From NCBI GenBank assembly GCA_023920165.1, contig CP089279.1, positions 248,001 through 312,000 on the forward strand: a stretch of DNA of 64,000 bases. Direction: 5' to 3'. This document shows, in pieces, positions 21,898-30,686 of the stretch (positions within the stretch are counted from its first letter, which is position 1; every line of letters begins with the position of its first letter). The notes beneath the pieces are model-generated. The model ran no database searches and was not told the DNA's origin. It saw nothing but the letters and a program-made list of their open reading frames with translations. Position numbers and translations under genes: made by a program. The stretch comes from Curvularia clavata (Eukaryota).

Positions 21898-22180
21898 CAT
21901 CTGCCGAGGCAGTTCTGCCGAACATTAGATCACCGCGTGGTTCCATGACGTCGTCATGGGTCTCTCTCGGACGAGTCTGCTACTTTTTTCTATAGCCGAC
22001 TTAAGAGACGCTTAGAAATACAGTACTGGACAACACTGACGACTTGTTTATAGACTAGAAGTTTCCGCATACTCAGACATCCATATTTAATATCCTCTTC
22101 AACAGTTTATTGTCACACCAATCACATACGCAATTTTCATTTGTATTGATACCCCGTAGCCTCTTTCCAATACTTCCAAT

Positions 22181-23524
22181 ATGGCACCACGAAGATACGA
22201 AGCAGAGCACAAGGACCCTGCCCCATTGGGCAAGCCTCTCGACTTTGTCTTCTCCAAGAGGACTGCGCAAAACCGATTCCTCAAGGGCGCCATGACAGAG
22301 CGTCTGTCGTCCTGGGATCCCGAGAATCTCGAGGCTCGCGGTGTACCGTCCAAGGAGCTTGTTAACGTGTACCGACGATGGGGCGAGGGCCAATTCGGTA
22401 TCATCCTGACTGGAAACATCATGATTGAGTACGACCACTTGGAAGCCGCTGGCAACCCCATTATCCCCCGGGGCTCAAAGTACGAGGGCGAGCGATTCGA
22501 CATGTTCAAGGAGATGGCGACACAGTCTAAGAAGCATGGCTCTTTGATCGTCGGTCAGGTCTCTCATCCCGGTCGCCAGGTGACCGAGGACATCCAGAAG
22601 AACCCCATCTCAGCCTCCGATGTGCAGCTCCAGGGCAACATCATGGGCATGACCTTTGCCAAGCCACGCGCCGCCACAGAGGAAGATATCAAGAATGTAA
22701 TTGAAGGCTTCGCTCACGCAGCCGAGTACCTCGAGAAAGCTGGATACGATGGTATCCAACTGCACGGCGCCCACGGCTACCTCCTCGCACAGTTCCTCTC
22801 GCCCACCACCAACCAGCGTACTGACCAATACGGTGGCTCTCTCGAGAACCGGGCGCGCCTGATCACTGAAATCGGCCAAGAAATCCGCAAGCGGACATCT
22901 CCCAACTTCATCCTCGGCATTAAGCTCAACTCGGTCGAGTTCCAGGACAAGGGATTCGGCACTGAAGAAGCAGCCACGCTGTGCAAGATGCTCGAGTCCA
23001 ACTCCTTTGACTTTGTCGAGCTCTCGGGCGGAACCTACGAGCAGCTCGCCTTTGGACACAAGCGCGAATCGACCAAGAAGCGCGAAGCTTTCTTCCTCGA
23101 GTTCGCCGAGAAAATCACGCCCGAACTATCTCAGACCCGGACGTACGTCACTGGCGGCTTCAAGACTGCCGCCGCCATGGTCGACGCCCTGCAGACAGTC
23201 GATGGCGTGGGTCTCGCGCGCCCTGTGACTCTCGAGCCCGAACTCCCGCGCCAGATCCTTGCGGGCGAGGTCAATGCCGCCATCAACCAGTTGACAGACG
23301 ACAACGACTTTGGCATCACGAATGTTGCGTCTGGAACGCAGATTCGTCAGTTGGGTAAGGATCAGCGCCCAATTGATCTTAGTGACGAGAAGAACTTTGA
23401 GGCGTTTAAGAAGGATATGGCGGCTTGGGCTCAGGGCCTGGCACAGGATAAGAAGAAGTACGGGTTTGTGGATATTGAGAGTGTGCCTGGTGTGCCGTAT
23501 GGCAGCACGGTGGAGGAGCCATAG
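22181..23524 (+). CDS. NADH:flavin oxidoreductase (Old Yellow Enzyme family)
   Basis: Motifs NRFLKGAMTE, QVSHPGRQ, GYDGIQLHGAHGYLLAQFLSPTTNQRTDQYGGSLENR and FVELSGG. Single exon with strong codon bias. Confidence 0.95.
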   Translation: MAPRRYEAEHKDPAPLGKPLDFVFSKRTAQNRFLKGAMTERLSSWDPENLEARGVPSKELVNVYRRWGEGQFGIILTGNIMIEYDHLEAAGNPIIPRGSKYEGERFDMFKEMATQSKKHGSLIVGQVSHPGRQVTEDIQKNPISASDVQLQGNIMGMTFAKPRAATEEDIKNVIEGFAHAAEYLEKAGYDGIQLHGAHGYLLAQFLSPTTNQRTDQYGGSLENRARLITEIGQEIRKRTSPNFILGIKLNSVEFQDKGFGTEEAATLCKMLESNSFDFVELSGGTYEQLAFGHKRESTKKREAFFLEFAEKITPELSQTRTYVTGGFKTAAAMVDALQTVDGVGLARPVTLEPELPRQILAGEVNAAINQLTDDNDFGITNVASGTQIRQLGKDQRPIDLSDEKNFEAFKKDMAAWAQGLAQDKKKYGFVDIESVPGVPYGSTVEEP

Positions 23525-24587
23525 AGGGTTAATGTGTGTACAAGTACATAGATATGACATGAAATGAACGAGGCATATGACTTGATCAATGAATTCTGAA
23601 TTTGTTTGACTTAAGACTCTCTATTTTCTGCTCCTCTTTTTGATGCAGTACTGTCTTGGGGCAAAGTAAACACTGCACACGTATGACGTTTCAACACCTG
23701 TCCATTCTGCACATTAACTAGCAATTCTTGACGACACGTTCATCTCAACTGAAAAAAAAACATACTATTCCTTCTTTCCTTTCTCAAGTTCCACGATCAA
23801 GCTTACTTTCCTAATTCGAATCCCAAGCTAACAGTGCCATTGGCAACCCAGTCCCTTTATCCCGATCACGTAAAGACCATGCCTTCATCCTTTCCTTCCC
23901 TGTATACCGTAGGCACGTTGCATTAGCTCTGCCCAGAGGACCCCAAAGCATGAAAAACCCCCGAGACGAGCGGGAAGACGCACGCACTTTGTTTCGCCTC
24001 GGGCCCGTCCGGGGAATAGACCATGTGTTCGCGGACTAGAGTGAGTTTACCACTAGGCAACAATAGGTAACTTTTGTACAAGAAAGCAAAATATGGATAG
24101 AGAAAAAGGGCTGACCAAGTGTACACGCAACACAGTGGTGGCGTGGGTCTGGGAACGTAGTCAGAGGGACGGAGGTAATGGCTGAGACGTGCTTGCGTAT
24201 GTGCACTCGTGTATGCTAGGAGTAAGGGAGGGGAAATGAGTCGAAATGACACTAGGTTCATAACTAGAATGGAAGCAACTGGATGGTTGGATGGCATTTT
24301 TTATGTAACGTGGTACGAATAAGTCTAGGCAAAGGCAACAAAAAAAGGCAACAAGAATGCCTACCTACGCATAGCCTACTAGCGTCTGTGTGTACTCGAG
24401 TATCCCCGAAAAAGCAAAGCCATGTCACTTTTCCTACTTGATCCTTCGGGAAAAAAGATTCCGCCTCATCTTGGGTTACCTTATCTTCTCTTCCTCTATC
24501 CGTTTGCCGGGATTATGGGGATTTACTTGCCTGTTTCTGCTTCTTACCACGTGTGTGAGGTGAGCCATCGTCTCAATCGAGTAGTCC

Positions 24588-24650
24588 AAGAGTGAGCCAA
24601 ATAGCCTAGAAGAGTAAGCCAAATGGCCTAGAAGAGTGAGCCAGTAGCCC
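24588..24650. repeat. 22-nt minisatellite, about 3 copies
   Basis: aagagtgagccaaatagcctag / aagagtaagccaaatggcctag / aagagtgagccagtagccc. Confidence 0.85.
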
Positions 24651-27191
24651 AAAATAACACCAGATATGTACGGCTGCCTTGCCAAATGATCCCAAATAGG
24701 ACTGGATTGGGTAAGGAGGGAACAGCTGACAATGCATCCCAAAATACACCACAGCTGCAGCGACGACGCTTCGGTCGCGCCAATGAGGAGTGAGATGGCT
24801 GGAATAAGGCAGCGGAGTTGCTGCATTGGGCGAATGCGCCGTCATGTCAGCGGACCATGGTGGTGTCAGCCCTACAAGCGCTTGTCGCGCTTGTTTGGAG
24901 GTTAGTCACAGGTTAGAGGGGAAAGAGGGAGAGGTACTATTTTTGGGGGCTGTGTAAGGTGTGAGCCTGCAGACTAGTCGTGTGGTTGAGCCCACCGCCC
25001 ACCCACGTCATATTCTAGCCAAGCTGGTATCTTGCGAGATGGGCGCGTAGGAGGAGTTCGGTCATGTACAGCATGGTGTTCGAAAGCGGAAAAAAATAAG
25101 ACCATGGTAACCGAGGAGTCGGTAGCCAAGGGTTTCCGTAGGGATGGGTGTGTACCGATGACCATTATTACTGGGATCGTTGGGCTGTCCGTTACCTGCT
25201 GCTTCACATTGTGCGTACATTGCCCTTTTTGTCATTTTTACATATGGAGATGACGCAGCTACACCGTGCGATTTTGCTATTTGGCTGCGGATTGGCCTTG
25301 GGTTTGCTGAGTTCCCTGCATACCTACATTGCTTGTTCCCAATGCATTGGATACCGGTGGTGATCAAGGCCGAGTCATGGCCCTCAAGGATTCTCGTTGC
25401 CATGCTGTTGGTGAGACTTTCCCGGCTTCTCGGGCCAATGCCATGGCTCTTGCTGGGCCATCCGAACATGGCGCATTTCCCAATGCCGAGGGGCCGGGAA
25501 GTCGAAGGAACGTGTGTGAGTATGCAAGATGTATTGGATATGACTTAGATCAAGCTTTGAAACACACACACCGTTGCTTTGCTGCATTTGGCATGTGTTC
25601 AAGGCCCTGCGGGTATTCTTCCCTACCCGGCCGCTTTCCCAGCTCTGGTCGGGGGGTGAATCCTCTGCAGCACACTAGTGGATACACAGCCCATGCTTTC
25701 AGCAGATGAGGTACCAGGCAAGCATCTGTTCCTGCGTCCTAAAATACCATTGCGGAGACGTCTCCGGCTCGAGCTGATTCCTGACAACGGCAACTATGCC
25801 TGATCGAGGTATAACGTAACACACTATGGCATTAGTTTGTGGTTTTGCAGCACAGCTGTGCAATGTGCGCTGAAGTTCGGGTCGCCATGCGGCCGCCGGC
25901 AAGGGCTGTACAGGCCGCTGAAGGTTGCAAGTCGAATGCTACCGTCGCTATTGTTAAGGCACCAGCGCGAGGTCTGCGAGTAGGAGTAGAGGAGACTTGA
26001 CAGGGTCAGGCATAGGGGTGTGCGGGTAGGGCTCAAACACTCGGCCCTGCATCCTATCTCTTTGACTAGAGTAGGGCAATGAATGGGTCAACTGGGTGCC
26101 TGAGGTTTCCCCCGAAGCTCTTCTCTTGGGTCCGCAAGCGGCACCATGCAACGTTGCGCGATTGCGCAGACCAAATTCGCACTTGAAATTCGGCTTGCAC
26201 GATGACTTATCACGGCGTGGCTTGCTCGCAAGCGGCATGTTGCAAATAAAAAAAAACATGACCTGTCGTGGTAGGATTCCTGGCGTGGAGTAGGTAGGTA
26301 CACAGAAGCAAGATGAAACGAAGAAGAGCAACTAGCGATGATGCTGCGAAGACGTATGACTGTATCGAACCGTCCAATACCATGGAAGAGCGTGCCGATG
26401 GCTTAACGATACCGTTGAGGCGCCATGGCATGGGTCGCAAGGGGGATAGCGTGAGGTGGAGCGGAAGCGGGACGTTGGAAGAGGAATATGGTGGTAGCGG
26501 ACTCCGGCATGGGCTAGTCGAGGGCAGGGTTGGTAGGTAAGCAGACGGTTGGAGCATTCTCTGGCATCTTCTGCCCTGGCTGTGACGAATTACTGTGCAT
26601 CGAGTGTGACTGTGGTTGCTGCTTTGCAATCGCGTGTTTGCGTGTCATACTGTGTCCAATGGGCGGTCGGTCTGTTGTGTAATCCGCAGCCAGATTCATC
26701 AGCCACGCACTTGGACACACCCACATGCACATTCACACAGCCACCCCTGTCATTCACCACCCCTGCACGTCCGTGCACACTACCTTGGCTTGCATATTGC
26801 GGCTCTCACCCGTGCATCCTTTAGTCACTGCCACGCATCCCACCCACTGGCCCTGGGACTTATTCCTGTCCACGACGCAAATGCCATGGTGTGCTGCGCA
26901 TTCGCCGGCGACTAACGGCCTAGCATGACCAGATCGTGGCTTGAACCAGGGCCGGCCGCCACTGCTCCGCGGCTGTGGTTGGGTGCGTGAGCCTGTCTAG
27001 GAGAGCAAAACCATGGCCTGTGCGTATAAGGACGGTTCGAATGCCTAGCTGAAGTCTTGGGAGAGCAGTAACAGAAGCACGACGCAGTCACCAAAACACC
27101 CGAGCGCCCTTTTTCCTTTCCTTCCGTTTCCCGAGTCTGCTATTCCCGTTCTATTTTCTGCAATCTTGTGTATCTCTTGGATCTTGTTTCA

Positions 27192-27260
27192 TATAAGTCG
27201 ACTCTCTCCTTCGTCTTTTGTTTCAGTCATCCTTTCATCCACCCATCCATCCATTCTGTT
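27192..27260 (+). promoter_or_regulatory. TATA box followed by a CT-rich initiation region
   Basis: TATAA at 27192-27196 followed by a pyrimidine tract, typical of strongly expressed filamentous-fungal Pol II promoters. Confidence 0.55.
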
Positions 27261-27475
27261 ACGCCTTGCTTCAGTCATACATCGTCAAAGAGTGTGTCTT
27301 GTTTCACTCTAGAATACATCACTCGTCACTCGGACAAATACCTTCAGCCACATACACGTACTTTTTGTCACATCGATCAGCACTGTTACATCCAAACACC
27401 CACCACTCCAACAAAACTCTCGTCATCATTTACGTCCAGTATCAGACGTTTGGATCGACATCAACCGACTCAATC

Positions 27476-27535
27476 ATGTCACCACCCAACCCCCAGGAGG
27501 ACTCTGCCAACTTGGGTCGTGGCGGCTACAACTAA
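27476..27535 (+). CDS. putative 19-aa microprotein MSPPNPQEDSANLGRGGYN
   Basis: First ATG downstream of the TATA box, in good context (CAATC-ATG-TC, A at -3). Codons are mostly the preferred type (AAC CCC CAG GAG GAC ... GGT CGT GGC GGC TAC AAC TAA). A long U-rich 3'UTR-like tract follows. Confidence 0.6.
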   Translation: MSPPNPQEDSANLGRGGYN

Positions 27536-28390
27536 GTTCGACGGAGTCTTCCCGTAACATCTACCGGGGTACTATTTGAAACATCTGCCATCGCTCGTAC
27601 CGTTCTTAGTCACGACTCTTCACGCTATACCACGACTACTTCAACGACCACCCATCAACGATGAACGACAATTTCACCGACGAGTATCGAAACGTCTTTT
27701 CATCCCACGTCTTTCACCACCATTCCTCAAGGCCCTGGTCCTTTTGTATTTGTACTTTTCCTGTTTTCTCTCATATTCCCATTTTCCTCATGTACTTGTA
27801 CGACCATTTCTTCTTCTTTTCTCCTGCTTTTAGTCATTGCCGTCTTTTTTTTATTCACTGTTTTGGCATAGCAAGCGACGGAGTTTGATATTAGGCAAGG
27901 ATCCTACACTGGAAAGAGACGGGAAAGCGGGGCTACCCACGGGTGTATCGTTTTGGAGAATTTTGTCTGTCTTTGCAACAGATGTATGGCATTGCTAGGC
28001 GTTTTTTGTTCTCGACCTTCTTGGTATGCAAGAACAGAGTATTGGGATACCCCTTTTCTTTTAGACAGTTGCTATGCTTGACTACACGAAAAAGCATACG
28101 GGTATTGGGTACAGCACATAGATTTTTCTGGTTGGCTGGGTGTTTCGGAGTTGGTTGTATTTTACAAGAGGCTTGGTTTATACTCTCTCAATTGATCTTT
28201 AGACACTCAGTTGTTCTTTGTCCTGCTTATGCAACGTCCAATCGGGACAACAGTTCTGCTCAGTACTCAAGTAACCTCAGGCTGCCAAGTCCGCAGACCA
28301 AGAGATGTTCCACCACCCACACTATTGAGACATTCTCTTTTGTACGATTGCCGTTGTATTTGTGGACCGTCCTGACGTTGCAGTCGCTTG

Positions 28391-30686
28391 TTACTTTCCG
28401 ACACAGAACCTACAAGCACGTGATGTCAGCGAGATATCCACCAAAACTTCCCCACAAACAACCACCCGTAAGGCGACGGTCACCATGCAGTGGCCCAAAC
28501 CATCCGTGTGTGATGTGCCACAATCGATACAGCACAGGCAACATGCCGCTGTAAGCGTTGTGGCGTCCCCAGCACAGATTCTGCTTAGCCCCCTTCAGAG
28601 CCCAAAATCAGAGTCTCGGGGGGCCAAAACCAAAAGACGCCTTGCCGGCATTTCCAGAATGTCGCACCAAATCATTACACAGAAAACAAGAAAAAGGAAA
28701 ATATTAGCGTAGACTTACTTCTCGAATACGACGCCCAAGACCTCCTCTACATCCCCGCTGTCACCTCGGCCCGTGATGCGGGCCAGTGCGTCAGCTGCGG
28801 ACCGCAGACACTCTGCAGCGACCACAATATCCACTTCGTCGGTATCATCCATCATGTCTTCACCGGTCGGAGAGGTACCTGGCGTCGGGCCCTGGACAGT
28901 TGTGAGAAAGACGGAGAGGTGGCTGAGACATTCCGACAGGAGAAGACGTTGACGCTCGGTTGCACCCAGGGATTCCTGCCAGATGCTTGGATCAGGGTCC
29001 GAATCGGGGACTAGGGCTGCCGTCATGGATTGGAAGGTGTCTTGCAAGGTGCTGAGGAACGATGGTATGTTGCTGTCGGCCCCTTCTTTGCAGGAGATGA
29101 AGCATATCCGGTCCTCGCCTAGGCCCAGCGCAGAGTGAACTTTGTCCTTCCATGTTTGGTGAGCGATGTCGAGGGGAGTCAGCTGATCGCTTTTGTTGAC
29201 AGCAACTATCACGTTGATGCCCAAGTCAACACACTGCTTCGCTGTCTCCATGACCTCAGGATCCATGTCGGCCGTCGCATCCTGGACGACGATCAAGACG
29301 TCCGATTCTAAGGCCCTTTGCTTGGCACGTCTTATGCCTTCCTGTTCTACGGCTCCGACCACATCGCCACCTACCAGGCCAGCCCTGCGTAAACCAGCCA
29401 TGTCTCCGACCTTGACAAGCCATCCACCCAGGTCTAGCCCTATCTCGACCACATCTCGCGTTGTGCCGGCCTCTTGGGAGACGATAGCAGCGTCTCGTCC
29501 AACGATTCGATTTAGCAAGCTACTCTTGCCTGCATTGGGTGCTCCAAGAAGCGCAACACTGATGCCATTGCGCAGTAACTCTCCACGAACCGCGTTGGAT
29601 ATATGGGCTTCCATCTGTTCGCTCAAGACCTGAACTTGGGACGCGACCGAGGCGCAGAGCTCCGCTGGTGATTCATCAAAATGCTGGTCTTCCGAGAAGT
29701 CAATCAAGGCCTCTAGCTCACCCCTTGCCTGCAGCAAGAGAGCGCGCCAGTGCTCATACCGCAACGCCAGCGAAGATGTGGTACCCCTTACAGACAGCTT
29801 TCGTTGCTGCTCGGTAGAAGCTGACAAAGTTTCACCGAGTGATTCAATCTGAGGCAGATCCATGCGATTGTTGGCAAATGCACGTCGCGTGAACTCTCCA
29901 GGCTCAGCATATCGGATTGGCGTGGGCGCGGACGCCAGGGCTCCTGATTTTCTACTACACTCAGGTATGGCTGCCAACACTGCGCGCACAATTGCTGGAC
30001 CGCCGTGTACATGTAGTTCCAAAACATCTTCGCCAGTCACAGTATTGGGCGCGGGAAAGTGGAGAACAAGGGCACCTGAGTCGAGTATCGTCGCAGGCGA
30101 AGGTGGTAGGTTTGGGGTATACAGTTTTCGGAGCGTTGCATATCTAGGATTTGGGAAGGCGGCAGAAGGACAGAGACCTTCGTATATCTGGTCGGTGTTC
30201 AGCCTTATGCTATATACAACATGATATGGCGGGGCGCATGTCACCAACCTGCTTGCATGCTGGGCCGGAAACGCGGATGACGGCTATTGCAGCCCTCCCG
30301 GGAGCCGTGGATAGGGCATATATGGTGGAATTGTCGCGGTCTGCGTGGTACAGACGTCGCTGGCCATCTCTCAAAGTAGGCCGGACATGATGGAGGGGTG
30401 CGCCGTGCAATGCTCTAGTCTGCGGGTAGCTGAGAGCGGAAAAGCAATGGCGAGGTAGAATTGAATGTGTCCACACTCTATGGTGACATGTGCGACTGAG
30501 AGCAGCGACGATGGCTCTCATACCGAGCTGAGTTGGCGCATTATGGGCATGTTCAATGTCTTGACATAGGACGATAGCTGGGCGGAAGAATGAATGGCTC
30601 CACACACCTCCGCAGTGGTCTGTGCATGCGCTAAAATAATTTCTTGAGATCGTCGCAAGTCTGCGCCTGCTCACCAACCTGTTCAT
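28391..30686 (-). CDS. MSS1: mitochondrial tRNA-modification GTPase (MnmE/TrmE family)
   Basis: Motifs TIYALSTAPGRAAIAVIRVSG, TGEDVLELHVHGG, GAPNAGKSSL, GTTRD, DMAG and NKSD. The terminal FCVGK* lies on a 19-nt last exon (28391-28409). Introns 30188-30248 and 28410-28718. The start could alternatively be ATG 30755. Confidence 0.93.

Follow-up and report, generated by a model that had tools for sequence, protein, structure and literature searches.

A putative GRGGYN micropeptide gene tail-to-tail with MSS1 in Curvularia clavata

A 19-codon open reading frame and its relatives

The 64,000-nt stretch of Curvularia clavata DNA analyzed here (contig CP089279.1, positions 248,001 to 312,000 of the forward strand; called the window in the following and numbered from its first letter) contains a gap between two genes. 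On the left lies an Oxidored_FMN gene of the old-yellow-enzyme type (22160-23524, + strand) and on the right a minus-strand gene for a MnmE/MSS1-type GTPase, which carries the Pfam domains TrmE_N, MMR_HSR1 and MnmE_helical in its main exon and has MAK16 beyond it. In this gap, the ATG at 27476 of the + strand opens a short open reading frame (sORF) of 19 codons, which encodes MSPPNPQEDSANLGRGGYN and is closed by the TAA at 27533-27535. The last six residues, GRGGYN, occur only once within the 64-kb window. This sORF, and the peptide family to which it appears to belong, are the subject of this work.

The start codon has an A at -3 and is preceded by an ATG-free run of 435 nt (27041-27476), the second longest on the + strand of the window; ATG was absent in 0.95% of 2000 dinucleotide-preserving shuffles of 27016-27475. 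These figures bear out a previous sequence-only reading of the window, according to which the ORF opens in good context after a leader free of ATG. Among the 344 ATG ORFs of 15-30 codons present on both strands of the window, the sORF ranked first by coding log-odds (a score trained on nine long ORFs of the window) and ninth by codon adaptation index. The coding bias claimed by the sequence-only reading stands, but its comparison with highly expressed genes found no support, since contig depth cannot rank expression.

The peptide contains no CAAX motif and, as judged by eye, no signal-peptide-like N-terminus, in agreement with the previous reading; it starts with the hydrophilic residues MSPPNPQEDS, has no dibasic site and holds a single GRGGYN core. 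There is no credible ORF downstream of it, as had also been noted. For the 75-codon ORF at 27661-27888, Pfam gave no match and the relatives no conserved counterpart; it shows a non-synonymous difference at 27689 in run X23 and a 1-nt deletion at 27845 in run X9. Pfam assigned no family to any of the 12 longest ORFs in the gap, and a 112-residue stop-to-stop frame found no match in the protein database at "near" or "shorter" lengths.

Relatives of the locus were collected from metagenome contigs with the MSS1 exon as anchor: 197 stretches matched, 138 of these encode a relative, and the best 80 (49-89% identity) were kept. These 80 fungal loci (L001 and following), oriented with MSS1 on the + strand, amount to 637,618 nt and were read in six frames. 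Exact GRGGYN was found in 149 copies, distributed over 42 of the 80 loci and over 35 of the 47 loci with a flank of at least 1800 nt. All 149 copies lie on the strand opposite to MSS1, tail-to-tail with it and at most 3.5 kb downstream of it, and no other GRGGYN is present in the six frames of the whole set. L060 carries the variant GRDGYN. A first metagenome scan with the degenerate pattern SANLGRGGYN had given no match; this pattern was too strict, because the relatives read (A/S)(N/S)MGRGGYN.

When window positions 26500-28450 were compared with the 80 loci by blastn, islands of three kinds only were obtained, corresponding to the sORF, to a region upstream of it and to a terminal micro-exon of MSS1. 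The sORF island covers 27470-27544 with 80-82% identity in L001, L002, L003 and L006, and 27513-27558 in L009; the upstream island covers 27257 back to 26825 with 66-68% identity in L001, L003 and L006. Within the gap, the sORF and its promoter region are the only conserved islands. Conservation of the peptide beyond its flanking DNA, which the sequence-only reading had set as a test, is what we found: the islands sit exactly on the ORF, the 3' flank cannot be aligned to the relatives by blastn, apart from a CGG-N6/7-CCG element, and the changes are biased towards synonymous ones.

GRGGYN is encoded by 66 distinct 18-mers, the copy of the window included. As the copies were collected by an amino-acid regular expression, the invariance of the motif is built in, and in 86 distinct copies codon positions 1 and 2 do not vary except for the Arg codon (CGN in 70, AGR in 16), while any base is found at position 3. 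The procedure imposes neither the synonymous spread and the variety of stop codons nor the ATG-free spacers and the strict specificity of position. The 38 distinct terminal copies stop with TAA (27), TAG (6) or TGA (5). The starts of the mini-ORFs described below mostly have A at -3 and G at +4 (context judged by eye). Past the stop of the first sORF, the nearest ATG in whichever frame opens the next GRGGYN ORF, 18-146 nt away, in 10 of the 12 distinct tandem loci; the exceptions are L013, with an intervening ATG, and L016, which gave no result. Over the whole 19-codon ORF, the pairwise ratio of non-synonymous to synonymous change (pN/pS) among the window, L001, L003 and L006 is 0.08-0.23. Judged from these sequences, GRGGYN has kept its amino acids while its codons underwent extensive synonymous change; the number of copies and the pN/pS values support the previous inference of a gene for a microprotein or peptide precursor.

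The relatives show 31 distinct architectures. In the closest ones, a 7-codon ORF, MGRGGYN (MGRDGYN in L003), is followed about 100 nt on by an ORF of 19-20 codons, which encodes MSPPNTQEESANMGRGGYN in L001 and L002, MSPPTNPQEESSSMGRGGYN in L003 and MSPPTPQEESSNMGRGGYN in L006. The sORF island of L009 encodes MGRGGYN. The 7-codon ORF is spelled ATG GGT CGC GGC GGT TAC AAC TAA in the relatives, and a dead remnant of it is recognizable in the window. In the window the residue before GRGGYN is Leu (TTG), as compared to Met in the relatives, which leaves the ATG at 27476 as the sole start. Two mini-ORFs, MGRGGYN or M(A/S/E)GRGGYN, are present in a middle group (MSS1 72-78% identical), and a mixed layout, MGRGGYN plus a two-unit ORF, is found in L034, L054 and L057. 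Distant relatives (MSS1 about 50-58%) have single ORFs of 54-85 residues with 3-6 units (e.g., L029:7422-7676:- and L055:4360-4524:-), which begin with M(x0-2)GRGGYN and mostly end with GRGGYN and the stop codon, and L070-L077 encode Ser/Pro-rich proteins of 312 residues with 7-8 units. GRGGYN usually stands at a free C-terminus. As far as these sequences go, it is the sole part conserved across the family, so that the emphasis previously placed on the C-terminal GRGGYN was right.

Database searches returned longer forms. On six fused forms, Pfam gave sub-threshold chance matches only, and the 312-residue form has six database relatives, none of them named. A phmmer search with the 85-residue form against 1.84 billion representatives gave 21 hits at E ≤ 0.001, the named ones being from Aureobasidium pullulans (identical to the L042 ORF), Hortaea werneckii (P0025), Hypoxylon sp., Aspergillus homomorphus and Mycena vulgaris. 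All named family members found are longer forms annotated as "hypothetical" or "uncharacterized"; the Hypoxylon protein has 505 residues and about 17 repeats. The GR[GS]GYN repeat proteins P0016, P0023, P0026 and P0028, whose sources include A. homomorphus and M. vulgaris, have signal-peptide-like N-termini (by eye), and P0024, which is unlinked to MSS1, has KR-EEE before each unit. These five proteins may be a secreted branch of the same kind of peptide. The ESM Atlas gave only leads scoring below 0.9.

In the full-text literature, no fungal peptide with GRGGYN was found among the matches as far as their accessible text and titles tell, the titles of the remaining matches being unrelated to fungal peptides. 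The hexapeptide is present in the RGG-type proline-tyrosine nuclear localization signal (PY-NLS) of yeast Hrp1, according to PMC8140498. It is absent from the text supplements of two surveys (PMC7329392; PMC6339444) of fungal Kex2-processed repeat proteins (KEPs). Another literature match was discarded as an artefact of "RGGY-NH2".

Transcript, promoter and neighbouring genes

The RNA evidence consists of unstranded contigs from runs X1, X9, X10 and X23, from which neither transcript ends nor levels can be read. Record 16 of run X23 (X23-16, 2983 nt) is colinear with 27186-28407 of the window and is RNA-derived, because both minus-strand introns of MSS1 are spliced out in it. Three overlapping contigs of run X9, which is classed as RNA by guess only, span 27087-27914 and are 100% identical to the window apart from 27845. 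At this position, a T-run of run X9 is shorter by one T, which reflects either polymorphism in length or faulty assembly at low depth. No splice joint was found anywhere in 27087-28407, neither in X23-16 nor in the X9 contigs; therefore the sORF is not spliced into a longer coding sequence. Such splicing had been named by the sequence-only reading as fatal to its proposal. Between run X23 and the window there is a single difference in 27186-27982, as compared to seven in 27983-28407 and 23 in the 1471-nt MSS1 exon, and the sORF unit is therefore locally more constrained than the neighbouring coding sequence.

Run X9 shows no cover of MSS1 or MAK16, and run X10 none of 27087-27914, yet it covers 28220-28407; such holes are not evidence. 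Run X1 shows no cover of 26991-28218, though its word share of 0.55 would fit the presence of the unit. The gaps in cover give a hint, and no more, that the sORF unit and MSS1 are separate transcripts. Conservation of the ORF, of a TATA box and of the Kozak context points to the + strand as the strand of the RNA. Further upstream, in the ORF-poor part of the gap, short X1 and X23 contigs lie at 23791-24209 (depth 25.5, about 3% diverged from the window), 24917-25181, 26282-26547 and 26896-27092, which may represent low-level transcription or DNA carry-over.

A MAFFT alignment of the window with L001, L003 and L006 shows invariant blocks in the promoter region (Table 1). One of them is a TATA box with the consensus GTATAA(G/A)GACGG, located about 60 nt 5' of the first base covered by X9 (27087), and this position suggests a promoter role for it. 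The sequence-only reading had instead taken the TATAA at 27192 as the promoter; this motif is inside the RNA-type contig that begins at 27087, is kept in two of the three close relatives (the third reads CATTTAAG) and is less well conserved than the TATA box at 27024-27031. With the latter box and RNA-type cover from 27087, the leader becomes about 390 nt long, in place of the 280 nt previously estimated; the promoter and the transcription start site (TSS) had been misplaced, as had apparently the 3' boundary, which had been put at 28260. The + strand of 27100-27900 contains 10-18% G and is rich in C and T.

The heptamer TGTTTCA occurs at 27185-27191, 27219-27225 and 27300-27306 and its complement TGAAACA at 27577-27583, so that four of the 14 copies of this Ste12-type motif in the window (either orientation) fall within 400 nt around the sORF. 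As a family-wide element, this cluster was not found beyond the closest relatives L001, L003 and L006. The copies could serve as sites in the DNA, or they could be RNA segments complementary to one another on either side of the sORFs. The CGG-N6/7-CCG element sits 4-13 nt past the stop of the last sORF in the window and in seven relatives. Covariation in favour of a stem-loop at this place is weak and not convincing: there is no variation in the inner pairs, while the outer one, which can be A-U, G-C or G-U, is A·C in two of the relatives. On neither strand did the folding of 27087-27914 reveal an excess of structure (z +0.74 and +2.40), and a highly structured non-coding RNA is therefore unlikely. 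The only Rfam match over 23400-28900 was a chance-level ES222 at 26041-26121 (22.9 bits as compared to a gathering score of 62). The idea of a telomerase template was discarded, neither CCCTAA nor TTAGGG being present.

Table 1. Features of the sORF unit and of the convergent end of MSS1 (window coordinates)
Feature	Position	Strand	Basis
Conserved promoter region of the putative sORF transcript	26825..27086	+	blastn, 66-68% identity over 400-446 nt to L001, L003, L006
TATA box GTATAAGG (relatives GTATAAAG)	27024..27031	+	Core invariant in window, L001, L003, L006
5' leader, ATG-free, G-poor	27087..27475	+	Covered by contigs X9-21 and X23-16; TSS placed by the contig end alone
Leader block TCTTGTTTCATATAAGTCGA	27182..27203	+	Near-invariant in window, L001, L003, L006; holds TATAA (27192) and one TGTTTCA
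Dead upstream mini-ORF remnant	27371..27394	+	Aligns with the MGRGGYN ORF of L001, L006; start ATC and stop CAA in the window
sORF, 19 codons and TAA, MSPPNPQEDSANLGRGGYN	27476..27535	+	ORF scores; orthologous sORFs in L001/L002, L003, L006
GRGGYN core, family-defining hexapeptide	27515..27532	+	149 exact copies in 42 of 80 loci, same synteny and orientation
3' region, T-rich from about 27700	27536..27914	+	X9 contigs to 27914; X23-16 colinear further to 28407
CGG-N6/7-CCG element, possible stem-loop (window: N7, 5 nt after the stop)	27541..27555	+	Common to the window and seven relatives
Terminal micro-exon of MnmE/MSS1, 19 nt, ending K FCVGK and stop	28391..28409	-	Joint 28407->28717 (CT..AC, cut +2) in X1, X23, X10
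MnmE/MSS1 intron, 309 nt, GT..AG (GTAAGT…TAG)	28410..28718	-	Contig joints in three runs and sequence

The end of the right-hand gene also had to be revised. Its coding sequence had been taken to end at 28715; the contig joints show an intron leading to a micro-exon, and the stop codon of MSS1 is at 28391-28393 of the minus strand. A model of MSS1 ending at 28715 would miss the conserved CxGK end. In the relatives, the micro-exon lies 222-416 nt downstream of the main exon in the close ones, directly after it (+18) in most of the distant ones, and at 71-594 nt in others. The stop-to-stop distance between the GRGGYN gene and the convergent MSS1 is 855 nt in the window and 100-1057 nt in the relatives, and in many lineages it is too short for two separate 3' untranslated regions (UTRs) of usual length. 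Overlap of the two transcripts may explain the long-lived synteny with MSS1.

Besides MSS1 there is no conserved neighbour among the 64 upstream ORFs scanned (out of 129 listed in 20 loci). These 64 match only Hus1, GST, permeases, ankyrin, a dehydrogenase and similar proteins, and differ from locus to locus. In the closer relatives L001, L006, L008, L009, L011, L016 and L022, 4-5 kb upstream of the GRGGYN gene contain no Pfam-matching ORF, as in the window; among the features conserved at the locus there seems to be a large upstream region free of genes.

A proposed peptide acting in trans and the rival explanations

We consider it likely that this segment is a genuine micropeptide gene of the + strand, belonging to an undescribed GRGGYN family located tail-to-tail with MSS1, and that it produces a short peptide acting in trans. 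According to this proposal, an RNA of about 0.8-1.2 kb would begin near 27087, downstream of the TATA box, and ribosomes would scan through the leader, which lacks AUG, before translating the 19-residue peptide. Where relatives have two mini-ORFs, reinitiation would give access to the second one across about 100-150 nt of spacer without AUG. A single short GRGGYN-containing peptide would be the active entity, serving as ligand, regulator or precursor, because the function evidently survives the reduction from eight fused units to one 7-mer. The persistence of the family as eight fused copies, two 7-mers or one 19-mer argues that its function is independent of multivalency and of the sequence outside GRGGYN. 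Multi-copy and tandem layouts would merely raise the dose, as in the tal/pri peptides or in multi-copy pro-peptides. The lineage of the window would have gained a conserved, acidic and Pro-rich N-terminal extension of 12-13 residues, and its species would afterwards have lost the internal Met (changed to Leu) and the upstream mini-ORF. The relatives with signal peptides make an extracellular role conceivable, but the absence of uniform cleavage sites around internal copies calls for care. It is possible, though rather unlikely, that fungi use GRGGYN, or a derivative modified from it, as a diffusible and widely conserved signal (an autocrine, quorum-type or cell-to-cell cue). It would be made from ORFs which, at 7 codons, are among the shortest known to code for protein in eukaryotes, without a leader in the MSS1-linked genes of Pezizomycotina and behind signal peptides in the precursors of other fungi.

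Several observations weigh against the proposal of a peptide gene acting in trans. Translation of the 19-codon ORF is a prediction from its sequence. The contigs are unstranded, the assignment of run X9 to RNA is a guess, and X23-16 joins the sORF unit to the MSS1 mRNA, so that a long 3' UTR of MSS1 could account for part of the cover. Part of the conservation, namely the invariance of the motif, is a product of how the copies were collected. Twelve of the 47 loci with a flank of at least 1800 nt have no GRGGYN gene at the MSS1 spot, and the 64 ORFs scanned include no partner, processing or receptor gene conserved nearby, just as they include no conserved neighbour of any kind. In the fused forms, the residue preceding the internal copies is E, A, Q, K, L or others; there are no uniform cleavage sites around them, so that it is not apparent that one defined peptide is released. 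Finally, the upstream sORF and the internal Met are lost in the species of the window, whose copy could be decaying.

The architecture of the fused forms could also be that of precursors of a ribosomally made peptide that is modified post-translationally (RiPP) or of a cofactor, in which GRGGYN would be both the recognition sequence and the core. The enzyme recognizing it would have its gene at another place and could modify, for instance, Tyr, Arg or the C-terminal Asn, giving rise to a modified small molecule or peptide. In this view the multi-copy ORFs would be typical multi-core precursors; the last core stands in most cases at the very C-terminus. The signal-peptide-like N-termini of P0016, P0023, P0026 and P0028 and the KR-EEE spacers of P0024 fit this explanation, and very short bacterial precursors with a critical C-terminal residue exist (the MccA heptapeptide, which ends in Asn, MftA and PqqA). 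However, no modifying enzyme is conserved beside the gene among the scanned ORFs, the motif is missing from the text supplements of the two KEP surveys, and 7-residue precursors leave no leader for recognition by an enzyme; we regard this explanation as improbable. The conserved linkage of the gene to MSS1 suggests yet another possibility, less probable still: one or more sORFs on a long non-coding or antisense RNA would act in cis, the nascent GRGGYN stalling or tuning ribosomes at termination in the manner of MAGDIS or of the arginine attenuator peptide. This would decide the fate of a convergent transcript which overlaps MSS1 and regulates it. The tail-to-tail linkage kept over 49-82% MSS1 identity, with the short stop-to-stop distances given above, the contig X23-16 that joins both units, the conserved element right after the stop codon and the resemblance to known upstream ORFs (uORFs) with conserved peptides all speak for it. 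Yet there is no main ORF downstream, the motif is internal in the 54-312-residue ORFs of distant relatives, where stalling coupled to termination is impossible for most copies, and the relatives with signal peptides favour a peptide product.

That the ancestral gene encoded a disordered, multi-repeat protein of RGG/Tyr low-complexity type (such as a scaffold for condensates or for RNA binding), of which the mini-ORFs and the 19-mer are functionless, decaying fragments, appears very unlikely. Forms with 7-8 repeats in a Ser/Pro-rich context, the Hypoxylon protein, the GRGGYN of the Hrp1 PY-NLS and the loss of one sORF in the window could be read in this way, but the mini-ORFs are intact in many separate lineages, some of them Sordariomycete-like, with synonymous-only change, strong start contexts and ATG-free spacers. 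Furthermore, the low pN/pS of the 19-codon ORF and the near-invariance of the unit between the window and X23, where the neighbouring sequence differs, do not suit a relic. The remaining two explanations are effectively excluded. In one, there would be no gene at all, and the 19-codon ORF would be a chance frame in transcriptional noise or in a long 3' UTR of the minus-strand MSS1 mRNA. This would account for X23-16 as one unstranded contig running from 27186 through the spliced MSS1 exons, but not for the period-3, amino-acid-level conservation on the opposite strand in 42 loci, nor for the TATA box and promoter, which are conserved 5' of the ORF in + orientation; in addition, the minus strand is purine-rich here, unlike the three clear 3' flanks of the window, although this test of strand is noisy, most long ORFs not being final exons. 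The other, a degenerate precursor of an a-factor-like lipopeptide pheromone, is the least credible of all. A tiny ORF starting with MSP on an RNA of about 1 kb with long untranslated regions, and the clustered TGAAACA motifs of Ste12 type, recall such genes, but neither the window nor the 31 distinct architectures of relatives contain a CAAX box, the conserved part is GRGGYN followed by the stop codon, and the TGTTTCA cluster is confined to the closest relatives.

Comparison with known systems and significance

Among the known systems closest to the proposed micropeptide gene is tal/pri/mlpt (tarsal-less, polished rice, mille-pattes) of arthropods, whose peptides share the motif LDPTGxY and act in trans through Ubr3 and Shavenbaby. 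There, several tiny ORFs with a common short motif lie on one RNA that looks non-coding; the relatives studied here show such an array at the DNA level, and a single RNA may likewise carry it. The number and length of the ORFs vary by lineage while the motif stays. The motif LDPTGxY is absent here, and the fungal GRGGYN bears no sequence relation to it. GRGGYN units are also as short as 7 codons, as compared to the 10-32 residues given for mlpt peptides in PMC6428570. Furthermore, unlike tal/pri, they are fused into one repeat ORF in other lineages, and the window has one live and one dead sORF. The fused forms resemble KEP and alpha-factor precursors in carrying multiple copies of a short core, KEPs being documented in PMC7329392 and PMC6339444; the signal-peptide-like N-termini of P0016, P0023, P0026 and P0028 and the KR-EEE spacers of P0024 add to this likeness. 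Unlike KEPs, the MSS1-linked genes lack, as judged by eye, a signal peptide and dibasic sites, a regular KR is absent from the spacers of the fused forms, and the units can be separate ORFs.

With the genes of a-factor-like precursors of the mfa-1/ppg2 type (PMC3068285; PMC10569646), the locus shares a 19-codon ORF on a longer RNA (contigs of at least 828 nt) that is easily missed by gene finders; it differs from them in the absence of CAAX, in the part that is conserved and in the synteny kept across classes. Compared with dikaritin precursors of the UstA type and with MSDIN-type precursors, the window shows no leader and no Pro framing, and none of the fungal RiPP enzymes looked for (UstYa/DUF3328, tyrosinase, prolyl oligopeptidase) is encoded by the 64 neighbouring ORFs scanned or in the gap of the window.

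Two further comparisons concern the size of the coding unit. Among uORFs with conserved peptides, those for the arginine attenuator peptide and for the MAGDIS hexapeptide of AdoMetDC are well known; like them, the GRGGYN ORFs are tiny, conserved in the amino-acid sequence itself and provided with a stop codon in a defined context. Unlike them, they have no main ORF downstream and no splice joint to another exon, and the motif is also found inside longer ORFs. MccA of microcin C is encoded by a bacterial 7-codon gene, MRTGNAN, and needs the adjacent adenylyltransferase MccB. It is a precedent for a real 7-codon gene, and for one whose heptapeptide ends in Asn, but it has no sequence relation to GRGGYN, beside which no MccB-like neighbour was present among the 64 ORFs scanned.

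For the locus itself, the analysis corrects the annotation: MSS1 acquires a terminal micro-exon, and what looked like a gene desert would really be a promoter. On the evidence of its sequence relatives, the GRGGYN locus appears to define an undescribed and widely conserved family of fungal micropeptides, which can be searched for with a simple rule, namely GRGGYN and a stop codon tail-to-tail with MSS1. An ORF of only 7 codons that fungi of different classes preserve in its amino-acid sequence would rank among the smallest conserved eukaryotic genes and would be invisible to gene finders. One coding unit that is found now in separate mini-ORFs, now in a short extended ORF and now in fused repeats would make this family a natural experiment on the evolution of micropeptide genes and on their translation by scanning and reinitiation, and a testable candidate for a new fungal peptide regulator or signal.

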